Of a stretch of DNA of 64,000 bases, positions 2,585-43,909 are shown piece by piece (the stretch's first letter is position 1; each line of letters opens with the position of its first letter). Below the pieces are notes generated by a model. It was not told the DNA's origin. It ran no database searches and worked only from the letters and a program-made list of their open reading frames with translations. Location: positions 255,502,001-255,566,000 of the forward strand of contig NC_091471.1 in the NCBI RefSeq assembly GCF_036971445.1, in the 5' to 3' direction. This stretch comes from Narcine bancroftii. Lineage: Eukaryota. Made by a program: the position numbers and the translations under genes.

Positions 2585-3445
2585 GAACATAGAAAGTGAA
2601 AGACCCTTTGGCCCATAGGGCTATGCTAACTCTAACAAATGCTTAGAATTTCCCAACTTTTCTCAGTTCCATGTACCTCTCTAAGAGTCTTTAAAAAGAT
2701 CCTGTTGTCCCTGCATCCACCATCATTGCTGGAAGCACATTCCATGCCCCCACCACTCTCTGTGTGGAAAACAAATTTTTACATCCCCCATGTACTGGTT
2801 CCCAAGCACCTTAAAATTATATTCTTTCATGTTAGCCATTTCAGTCTTGGCCATCCACACAATCAATGCCTCTCAACATTTCATGCACTTCTATAAGGTC
2901 AACTCTCCATCGCTCCCAGAAAAAAGGGCCAAGTTCCCTCAACCTATCCTCTTAAGTCGTGATCTCCAATCCAGACAGTGTCCTTGTGAGTCTCCTCTAC
3001 CCCCTCTCTATAGCATCCACATCCTTCCTATAGTGAGGTGACCAGGACTGAACACAATATTCCAAGGGGTGGTGGGGGGGTGGTCTCACAGAAGCCTAAT
3101 AGCCTGATCTCAGAAGCTAAGCAGGCTCAGGCCTGGTCAGTACTTGGATGGGAGATGGCCCAGGAACACCAGTGGCTGTAGGTTCCTGCAAGGGGTGCTG
3201 GACAAGAGTCAATGCTCTGTCTGCCTTTCGGTAGACAAAAGACAAAGACATTACATTCTAAATATACTATTATGTGAAAATAATGGAACCTTTAGCAAGG
3301 ACTTAGAGAGCTGCAGGATGAATTCACAGCCCCTGAACTCAACCCCATGTTTAATGAAGGCCAAAGCACCAAACACCTTCTTCACAACACTTCTCGGCAG
3401 CAGCGTTGAGTATATGATGGACAAGGACCCCAGGATCTCTCAGTT
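2585..3445 (-). mobile_element. CR1-like LINE 3' fragment, interrupted by the 5S-headed SINE
   Basis: caccactctctgtgtg, gaccaggactgaacacaatattccaa and aatgaaggccaa motifs match the reverse complement of other CR1 copies in the window. Confidence 0.7.
3102..3293 (+). mobile_element. 5S rRNA-derived SINE (SINE3-type): partial 5S head 3102-3184 plus ~110-bp body and tail
   Basis: ctgatctcagaagctaagcaggctcaggcctggtcagtacttggatgggaga...gctgtagg matches the 3' two-thirds of vertebrate 5S rRNA (boxes A and C); no T-run terminator; body is homologous to 28802-28923. Confidence 0.8.
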
Positions 3446-7168: not shown

Positions 7169-7959
7169 GGCAACACTGTCGTCGGAGAGGTGATGGGGAT
7201 TCAGGAGGCAGTGGAAGTGAAGGAGGTGACAGAATCCACGGGCCCTCAAGGTCTCTGAAGGGACTCTCTTGTCTTGATAGGGCTGCTGGACTTGTGATTC
7301 CTATTTGCCTCGACAAACAATGGAAATCAACTTTGTGCAGACATCAAAAAGGAAACTTGAGTTGAATATTCTTCATAAAATCTGCATTCATTTTCAATCC
7401 AAGAACTGCTATTCCATTAAATTTACATTCTATCATCATGGTCAACTTTTCTTAGGCATATTTAATATTAAAATATTCTTTAATTTAAAGATACTATAAA
7501 AGGCCCTTCTGGCCCATGCTGTGCAAATACACATATCCGATTAGCCTTCTAACCCTGTATATTTTTGGTGCATTCAGAGGAGGGACACGAGGAGAGCGTA
7601 CAAATTCCTTTGAGACAGTAATGTATTTGAACTCAGATCGCTAATCATGAGCGTGGAATCCAGGGGCTTTTCCATATGGCTTCCAACCCCTCAGTGTGCA
7701 GTTGGGGGGGGGGGGGGGGGGGGGCGGGGGCTTAATCCTTGGTGAAGGCTGCTGCCAGATCAGCGTGGGGATGTACTGGTCTAGTGGCAGACTGGAAGAT
7801 CAAAGGGTTTTGGGCGAACCAGAGAATGGCTTTCACGGATGCAGTGACATTCCAGGGACCATCGCCAAACAGGACACGACTAAAACAGCTGGTGTTTGCC
7901 TCAGTGTGCGGCCCTGAGAACAGACTGTGATCGTGCGGCCCTGGGAATAGACTGTGATT

Positions 7960-41260: not shown

Positions 41261-43909
41261 GTAGATCAAATGAGGTACTGTTTATTGTCAGGTAATAAAT
41301 CAGAAATGAAAAATTACACAAAATTGCTTTTGGTCTTTCATAAGATTAATCTGCATTCACTTCCACAAATGTACAAATGAACACACGTGCAAAAGCACAC
41401 TCAAGGATGCAACATAGATTATATGCAGACCTGCCAATAGATGCAAATTCACATGCAAACACAGGCATTCATATGCTCCAAAACATACACACACTTAAAC
41501 ATGAACATCCAGCTATGTGAATATACACAAATACACACATACAGACACAGGCACACACACATTCAATCTCCAACACTGATGCTAGGAGACCACAATCAAC
41601 TGAGCAAAGAGCATTTATTCCGTTGGAACTGTTCACTTTCATTTTAACACTTCCTCCAGATTTCTCTCTTTAGCTGCTCTCCAAATCATATTCAGTCACT
41701 TGTTTCGTTATTCTTTCACAAATAATGATCCAAATCTTCAATTAAGTGTAACTTCCTTTCGAGTAAGTCAGTCTCATGCATTTGTAATTATAAATATGAA
41801 TAAAGATTCTGATACTGTCTATTCTCTGTCAAACGGAAAAACTTTCAGTAAAAAAAAAAACTCTGTTCTTTGCTTTAACCCTTTGGACTCTGGTCATTTT
41901 AACCTTTCATAATATACGCTCCCCACTTGGTCCATTTTAACCTTTCATACACTCCCCACTTGGTCCAGGGGTAACACCAGTACAAACCAGCTGATTGTTG
42001 GGTATAAATCCAGTCCCAGGAAACAGGGAGACAGAGTAGTTTAGTTGAGAAAGTGTCAGCTTTGGTGGGTTCAAGGAGAAATGAATCTGGACACAAGGGT
42101 TTGCAATCAAATGTACCTTTATTAATACAACAATTAATAAGAGAGACAATTTATAAGGGAGAGTGAGAACTGATCATAAACGTGGGAGAACGTTAAACTG
42201 TATACAATTATTAATTCTCACAGACAATGCAGACATTCACACACCATCAATAATTCATAAAGTCTGAGTAGTGAAACAATCAGGCTTTTAATAGCTAAAG
42301 ACTGGAACACTATTAAACAACCATCCACCTCCTGACAGCCTGACGAATGGCCCCATCCAGTTTAGAGATCAGGAGAAAGACAAGGTGTGGAATAATTCAG
42401 TTTAGGCTTTGTGCAGAAACAATATTTCCATTTATTTCTCTCAATAACAATCAATCCAGGATCCAGATAAACATTAAGCAATTGTGTTCATAAAATTCTT
42501 TGCATTTAATGATAGGTTTTTAATTTCTTTTAGATTTTTTTACATTTTAAGAACAGAATCTTCTGTCTGCCAATGGTGAGAACTCAGGGAAGATATACAT
42601 ATGGAAGCAAATCCCAGGAAGGTTGAAGAGCATTAGATTTTATATTTACAGAAACAGGCCATTTCAGTCCATGAGTCAGTGCCATCCTATTTACACCCCA
42701 TTAACCTACACTCCTACTATGATTTGCACGGTGGGAGGAAACCCATGCAGACACGGGAAGAACATACAAACTTCTTACAGACAGTGTAGGATTCTAACCC
42801 AAGTCAGCCCTGATCGTTAGTGCTGTAATGGCATTGTGCTGCCCTGCCCCAAATGTGTCACCCCAATACCACAGAGTTATGGTAATGGGTGATTTTAACC
42901 TCCTTGGGTCCTAGATTGGGCAGAATTGATGAAGGTCATTGGGGAGAATGTTAGAGACAATATTTAAATACTCCTACTGGAAATAAGGCAAGGGAGGACC
43001 CTATATTAGGTTGTAGGGGGAACACATTGGGAACAACGATCATAGATTTGTTACTTCAGTTGCCAATTTCCACTCTGCTATCTCCATCAGATGGCTTATC
43101 TCTGACTTCACCTCAAGGAATGGTCTGGCCATCATCTTGCTTTAACCCATATTTACTCGCTCAACAACCTCACAATCCTTCCTCCTGTAACAAGCCCACT
43201 CAATTGCTCTGCCCCCTGCACATTTCCAAAGGTGATGAGACTTTTTGCCAGTGGAGCTCACCCATAATGGTCATTCTGGAGGGCCTCCCTTCCTCCTGAA
43301 CTTTGGCTTTGTCTCTACACAGTGGACAAACCCTTGACCACATCTCAACTCATTTCCTCTCCTCTTTCTCTCCTCCTTCTCCTCCTGGACAGATTTCCTG
43401 TGGTCCTTCCACCCCAACAGGCCTTTGCATTCAACAGGTCACCCTTCACAATTTGTACCAGCTCGAAGAAGATTCCACCATTGCCTGTGCATCCTCCACT
43501 TGCAACTTTTTGATGAAAATGGGTTTATTTACTGTCAAACACATAGCGCATATATACATGTGTAATAGTCAATACCATGTAAAAGTTGCCCCCACCCTAT
43601 TTTCGCCCTGGCCTCCCACCCACTGGAGCACTCAATTCTCGCCAAAGCCCCGGCCACCTGCCCTCTGGACTCCTGATGCCCCGATGGCTGAACCCTTGTT
43701 TCAGCTGGTCGCCTGCTCATTTGAGCTTCCAACACCCCAACCACTGACTCTTGTGTTGGCAGGCCGCCCATCTTAGCGCCTGACATCTGAATGACACAGG
43801 TACTTACCACGGTCAAGGGTAGCATTCACGTAATAGTGGACCCCCTTAATAATTGTTCCAGGAAATTCAGCATGTGAATAGAGAATGCACAAACGCACTG
43901 AAATTCTTG

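Follow-up and report, generated by a model that had tools for sequence, protein, structure and literature searches.

Organisation of the window

The window analysed here, a 64-kb stretch of the Narcine bancroftii genome (contig NC_091471.1, positions 255,502,001 to 255,566,000), contains two SINE copies that lie on opposite strands and carry different small-RNA heads on the same type of body and tail. A tail-only insertion, a fragment of an ORF-less element (here called X) and older repeats split by the two SINEs are also present (Table 1).

Table 1. Features of the SINE pair and associated repeats in the 64-kb window
Feature	Position	Strand	Evidence or remark
Older repeat split by the 5S-headed SINE	2963..3390		8 colinear uninterrupted host pairs
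5S-derived head, 5S-headed copy	3088..3182	+	Sequence, family alignment, family head against host 5S genes
Body and tail, 5S-headed copy	3183..3294	+	80% to family consensus
Older LINE 3' end, Rex1-type tail family	28745..29060	-	Split by the tRNA-headed SINE, without target-site duplication
Body and tail, tRNA-headed copy	28800..28922	-	86% to family consensus
tRNA-Thr(TGT)-derived head, tRNA-headed copy	28923..28997	-	ARAGORN, Rfam; 90% to family head, 77 bases
5'-truncated insertion, last ~25 tail bases only	32141..32165	-	Sits inside another repeat
X-type tail fragment	41281..41344	-	nhmmer E 2.8e-5; 82% to X over 51 bases

The sequence-only reading that preceded this analysis had placed a 5S rRNA head at the plus-strand copy from position 3102; the 5S origin stands, and the start has to be moved, as the copy begins near 3088 and carries a 20-base deletion. 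This head represents the minor 5' variant of its family and retains box A, the intermediate element (IE) as well as the box C region; the 20 missing bases lay in the 5' half of the 5S sequence, with a short direct repeat on either side. Rfam 5S was not called on the window copy (3088-3182) at E<=1; in all three sister copies scanned, RF00001 matched with 38.9, 36.8 and 30.8 bits, one of them above the 38-bit cut-off. The tRNA-Thr head proposed for the minus-strand copy was recovered by ARAGORN as tRNA-Thr(TGT) at 28923-28995 and by Rfam RF00005 with 43.2 bits. The two bodies (3183-3292 on the plus strand and 28921-28802 on the minus strand) are colinear, as had been claimed, with 69% identity over 120 columns (blastn E 1.2e-8) and a local score of 267 against 78 +/- 12 (maximum 147) in 2,000 shuffles. 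The identity is no higher because both copies have decayed, to 80% and 86% of their own consensus sequences. The tail-only piece was also correctly recognised: it equals the family tail in 23 of 23 bases (32143-32165) and breaks another repeat, for which 26 colinear host pairs were found. The LINE 3' end that is split by the tRNA-headed copy has one colinear uninterrupted host copy, and its tail family follows PF09004-type ORF ends elsewhere. The repeat split by the 5S-headed copy is presumably CR1-like, judging from its motif.

Two abundant SINE families of equal age

The genome assembly comprises 3.3 Gb in 595 contigs, and searches with the body, the 5S-headed copy and the tRNA-headed copy each returned at least 40 scored matches spread over many contigs. 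Exact 18-base matches to the head-body junction numbered 1,473 for the 5S head and 1,011 for the tRNA head, with none for the reversed controls, so neither junction is the single-copy chimera that the sequence-only reading had allowed for. Both families fit the SINE definition in the portion of the SINEBase description covered (<1 kb, interspersed, at least 100 copies; PMC3531059), with consensus lengths of ~244 and ~206 nt and more than 1,000 exact junctions each. The exact junction was kept in 4 of 34 copies found by tail pattern or outside a locus's central match, a set that includes a few head-search picks, and on this basis each family is roughly estimated at near 10^4 copies. Sixty 10-kb stretches at round coordinates held four tRNA-headed copies and one 5S-headed copy, which corresponds to a total of 9,000-65,000 (Poisson limits), and 30 tail-selected loci read by eye comprised 17 that were 5S-headed, 5 tRNA-headed and 8 headless. 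Both families are abundant, and the samples conflict on which is larger. When the tRNA head alone was used as query, 19 of 20 loci ran on through the body and the remaining one kept only the body start. In run X9, which bears another organism label, 401 contigs match the body and three of these pass into the 5S head; runs X5, X13 and X16 have 12-18% of words in common with the 5S-headed copy and no contigs on the body, and carry no weight either way.

Sorting body copies by head, as the sequence-only reading had suggested, yielded two families whose bodies, in consensus sequences built from 30+30 copies picked by junction only, differ by one substitution and one base (99.2% identity over 127 columns). 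The diagnostic substitution follows the head: G was found in 82 and T in none of 92 5S-headed copies, and T in 71 and G in 6 of 85 tRNA-headed copies, the rest having another base or a gap. In the junction-selected 30+30 set this association has a Fisher p of 4e-12. Non-CpG divergence is 7.6% in the 5S-headed and 8.6% in the tRNA-headed family (n=30 each, p=0.50); the two families are therefore equally old, were active together and are long dead. As a separate observation, two loci 82 Mb apart on one contig (L176 and L179, G000:C1) are 89.6% identical across the whole 3.1 kb fetched, and are an old segmental duplication or a larger repeat.

The 5S and tRNA heads

The family 5S head is identical to a host 5S gene at 99 of 116 positions, a SINE3 being defined by 60% or higher identity to 5S rRNA along a minimum of 60 nt. 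With the coordinates that we take for the promoter elements, identity to the host gene is 15/15 in box A, 5/6 in IE and 16/18 in box C, as compared to 35/47 in positions 1-49; the type 1 internal promoter of a SINE3 (box A, IE, box C) is thus present, the one differing IE base being a subfamily variant. The head stops at the end of the RNA, where the T4 terminator of the host gene is replaced by T3. The family is distinguished from a plain RNA pseudogene by its fixed body and by common substitutions that are absent from the fetched host 5S genes. Compensatory changes in helix II relative to the generic 5S model were considered as a sign of selection on the 5S-headed SINE and this was rejected, as the same changes are native to host 5S genes. 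An array of 5S rRNA genes at L361-L372 (G000:C15:227.40-227.66 Mb) gave 47 scored matches, with several gene variants side by side.

The tRNA-Thr(TGT)-derived head has the A and B boxes of a SINE2, with one non-canonical base in the B box, where T stands instead of the A conserved in the consensus that we assumed. Its source tRNA gene was not among the 25 matches examined. At one locus (L403, G000:C9:186768424-186769129), the 78-nt tRNA-Thr head is repeated by itself about nine times, head to tail, with a deleted body behind it; this small tandem array has grown from a SINE head.

The 5S head occurs in two 5' variants, as seen in L108 and L301 compared with window positions 3088-3100. In the major variant, the opening ten bases form an exact reverse complement to the 3' arm of 5S, through changes relative to the host gene that lengthen the closing stem; the tRNA head also has a longer closing stem than a tRNA. 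These longer stems may possibly reflect templated repair or selection against processing.

The body and its ORF-less relative

The SINE tail carries no poly(A) and ends in GACAATAA plus a short repeat, the (CCTTTA)n of the sequence-only reading. The LINE with the same ending that had been expected there did not turn up; the nearest relative of the body is X, an abundant ORF-less repeat of ~820 nt with a fixed 5' end, which was reached via a flank match. The last ~125 nt of X are homologous to the entire SINE body (score of 107 for the tail of subfamily X1 against 18.7 +/- 3.3, maximum 38, in 2,000 shuffles), and the body is 82% identical to its closest subfamily, X2, which ends in (GAACCTT)n, and 79.5% identical to X1. 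As judged from the alignment of body and X tail, which sets in with the opening bases of the body, there is no room for a Deu-, V- or CORE-type central domain. X tails are ~10% diverged by the same measure that gives 7-8% for the SINEs, so X is older than the SINE families; this comparison is approximate, the X sets having been picked by similarity.

Four or more T residues in succession stop Pol III. X2 has a T5 run, with T4 or longer in 26 of 30 copies, and a C breaks this run in 81 of 92 5S-headed and 79 of 85 tRNA-headed SINE copies; neither full SINE consensus contains a T4 run. The loss of the X2 run is therefore a change that a Pol III element needs. In each of the four consensus bodies compared, three hairpins are predicted, with 30 of 32 pairs kept in all four, both broken pairs located in the tRNA family, one pair changed on both sides, and fold z-scores of -3.5, -1.8, -2.6 and -2.5. 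With four related sequences only, this apparent conservation is suggestive.

X subfamilies end in (GAATCTT)n or (GAACCTT)n, and ~10 X pieces were found in 600 kb of random sequence. The X 5' end opens with a motif that we take to be YY1-like, and copies were seen at L201-L230, L407-L436 and window positions 41281-41344 and 7205-7270. No target-site duplication was evident by eye in 10 full-length X copies.

The probable partner LINE

We take LINEs that bear PF09004 to be Rex1, and the CR1 and RTE clade labels are likewise our assignments from motifs. In a random sample, the GACAATAA-type end was found after 10 of 27 PF09004-type, 0 of 38 CR1-type and 3 of 32 RTE-type ORF ends, against a background of 5.5%. 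The longest flanking direct repeat reached 10 or more in 1 of 109 SINE copies and averaged 4.9, compared to 4.5 in mismatched pairs; the long target-site duplications typical of RTE-mobilised pairs (Ped, CoeSINE, HaSE) are missing here. The terminal motif and the missing duplications point, somewhat better than evenly, to a Rex1-type LINE as the probable partner. The X1 tail aligns to one Rex1-type tail in three ordered blocks, with a score reached by 6 of 1,000 shuffles; alignments of the SINE bodies to the same tail were not significant (402 and 747 of 1,000 shuffles), nor was that of X2 (402).

The search for a coding partner covered several sets of loci. ORF-bearing LINEs with the SINE tail numbered 0 in 30 body-selected loci, 30 tail-selected loci and 20 unclassified tail matches in 926 kb; the ~2 Mb fetched contained no coding element bearing this tail, and two context patterns gave no matches. 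None of the X loci showed an ORF leading into the tail. The X 5' end and Rex1-type 5' ends look alike by eye; a profile search returned no matches, and one of six pairwise tests fell below 5% (13/300, at another place). Among 30 of 150 loci fetched from the PF09004 search, only unrelated tail families were seen where the tail was readable, and 50 loci from a search with the Rex1-type N terminus had no X-like 5' UTR or tail in register. Locus L030 was rejected as a LINE head on the body, being a truncated SINE inserted in a Rex1-type fragment, and L161, L171 and L220 were rejected as X joined to an ORF, the neighbours being unrelated.

A partner from another LINE clade that leaves no long duplications (another CR1-group lineage, for instance L2, Crack or Daphne, or an RTEX/Nimb-like element) appears less likely than not. 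It would be in keeping with the failure to find a coding partner, with a likeness to Rex1-type elements that consists of the terminal motif and one modest alignment, and with an ORF-end sample that did not extend to L2-type ends; it is opposed by the enrichment of the motif behind PF09004-type ORFs and its absence behind CR1-type ORFs, and by the finding that rays have the highest Rex1 coverage among the vertebrates sampled, in the part of PMC13343379 covered.

At least four Rex1-type LINE tail families coexist in this genome (L122-L150, L231-L260, L437-L486), with 82,324 first-look PF09004 candidates. Where SINE copies sit in older LINE fragments (L009, L030, L123, L348 and window 28745-29060), the joints are blunt, show microhomology of a few bases and lack a duplication.

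Origin of the pair

Both heads join the body at the same base. Because both SINEs share the broken T run and the body start base, one tail capture followed by head replacement is the likely origin of the pair. The sequence-only reading, in which one module acquired two promoter types, is upheld with respect to the shared tail and can be refined: the two heads were probably not separate captures, given the same junction base and the shared derived changes. If 5S RNA and a tRNA had independently captured the same donor tail, repeated template switches would leave each head stopping at the RNA 3' end, as observed. This is nevertheless improbable: the two families use the same junction base and, relative to the nearest donor, have ~18% of body positions in common, the broken T run among them, and an unseen head-less donor already suited to Pol III would be needed. 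The decayed look of the window copies is all that favours chimeras formed by chance, or processed 5S and tRNA pseudogenes beside a LINE end, and these can be set aside with near certainty: there are more than 1,000 exact junctions for each family, and copies have substitutions in common that are missing from the host 5S genes. This explanation is already refuted. With good confidence, we regard these as two real, equally old SINE families with 99% identical, X-homologous tails, whose likely origin is one capture with a subsequent head swap, a Rex1-type LINE being the likely agent of their copying.

The 5S family has the X2 (ancestral) state at both diagnostic sites, which leans weakly toward a swap in which the 5S head came first and the tRNA head second. 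In the opposite order, a tRNA-headed SINE would have come first, 5S would have replaced its head as proposed for HaSE1 and HaSE3, and the tRNA family would have gained its two private changes later. This order is a real possibility that we hold at somewhat below even. The published precedents run from tRNA to 5S or 7SL (PMC3272025 and PMC7245038, in the parts covered), and the 6 of 85 tRNA-headed copies with the ancestral G are somewhat more diverged (8.6% compared to 6.3%), although these six copies fit either direction. Against the tRNA-first order, both SINE bodies start with TTT, whereas in most X copies the third base is A (at least 29 of 32 scorable, compared to one with TTT). The TTT could be the U-tail of 5S RNA, as the host gene ends in T4, subsequently inherited by the tRNA family; this argument is weak, X2 being only an 82% relative.

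Proposed mechanism and implications

In the scheme of one capture and one swap, Pol III is predicted to transcribe either SINE from the internal promoter in its head, type 1 for 5S and type 2 for tRNA, and would read through a body that lacks any run of four T. The absence of T4 runs bears on such transcription indirectly. A LINE reverse transcriptase would then recognise the three-hairpin tail and prime on (CCTTTA)n in target-primed reverse transcription, and a template switch at the mature 3' end of each small RNA may have attached the heads. In the parts of the sources covered, a template switch has been suggested for HaSE3 (PMC3272025) and as the way in which non-autonomous LINEs acquire heads (PMC5786205).

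Read more broadly, and tentatively, one Rex1-recognised three-hairpin tail would have served under three promoter types in rays, namely that of a Pol II-type ORF-less 820-nt element, 5S type 1 and tRNA type 2, with a swap from 5S to tRNA and a 5S version that was equally successful. If this is true, then a 5S-headed SINE and an ORF-less non-autonomous element both ran on Rex1 machinery, neither of which we found in print. As covered in part, PMC5786205 lists ORF-less non-autonomous LINE derivatives from four clades (RTE, Ingi, Vingi and R2), and a Rex1 partner would extend them beyond these. The pair also provides a near-controlled natural comparison, with the same tail (99%), genome and age and a different Pol III promoter. 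Kapitonov and Jurka (cited via PMC3272025, covered in part) proposed that 5S promoters work poorly once retroposed, explaining the rarity of 5S-headed SINEs; in this genome, intact junctions are no fewer in the 5S-headed than in the tRNA-headed family, although small random samples lean the opposite way. The donor relative X displays one step in the birth of a SINE, in which the captured tail lost a Pol III terminator. Both families appear to be long extinct, and nothing points to a function in the host. What deserves further attention is the donor X with its lack of an ORF, the probable tie to Rex1 and a 5S promoter that did as well as its tRNA counterpart.

Comparison with known SINE pairs

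No published description of the ray pair was found in a search confined to published papers, PMC6274825, PMC3123226 and PMC10886601 among them; 'tRNA-Rex', '5S-Rex' and similar names gave 0 results in the literature. Several similar pairs are known, and the statements that follow apply to the parts of the cited accounts covered. HaSE1 and HaSE3 of Helicoverpa armigera (PMC3272025) are tRNA- and 5S-headed SINEs with a common body and tail (94% there), with an RTE partner, a 15-bp target-site duplication and a HaSE3 much rarer than HaSE1; in contrast, the ray pair is without long duplications, and junction counts put its 5S family level with or above the tRNA family. CoeSINE4 and CoeSINE5 of the coelacanth (PMC5786205) have tRNA and 5S heads and similar LINE-derived 3' parts in another fish, but these parts are bipartite, from RTE 5' and 3' UTRs, whereas the ray body is a single 3'-terminal piece of an ORF-less element that ends in a Rex1-like motif. 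Ped-1 and Ped-2 of the springhare (PMC3747384) likewise combine 5S- and tRNA-derived heads with one partner LINE, which differs in being BovB (RTE), and the host is a mammal. In the hagfish, SINE1-1_EBu and SINE2-1_EBu (PMC7245038) show a head replaced on one tail, both SINEs active together and a tail from a non-autonomous LINE derivative, as in the ray pair, but differ by their 7SL head, RTE partner, ~17-bp duplications and extra central domain. All four of these pairs have RTE partners (PMC3272025, PMC5786205, PMC3747384, PMC7245038).

The sole Rex1-partnered SINE in the part of the PMC3747384 table covered is SINE2-5_NV of the sea anemone, with Rex1-24_NV; it has a tRNA head only, comes from an invertebrate and its partner is identified, whereas that of the ray pair is inferred. 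HE1, SacSINE1 and the CmiSINEs belong to the same host group, the cartilaginous fishes, and zebrafish SINE3-1 has the same 5S head type (PMC3747384 and PMC5499810, in part), but these are described as having V, Deu or CORE central domains and CR1/L2 tails; the ray pair, in which the head joins the 125-nt tail directly, is set apart from them by those descriptions. Given the published precedents, a 5S and tRNA head pair on one tail is less surprising than the sequence-only reading held: such pairs are already known, and the ray pair is a new example and not a new principle.
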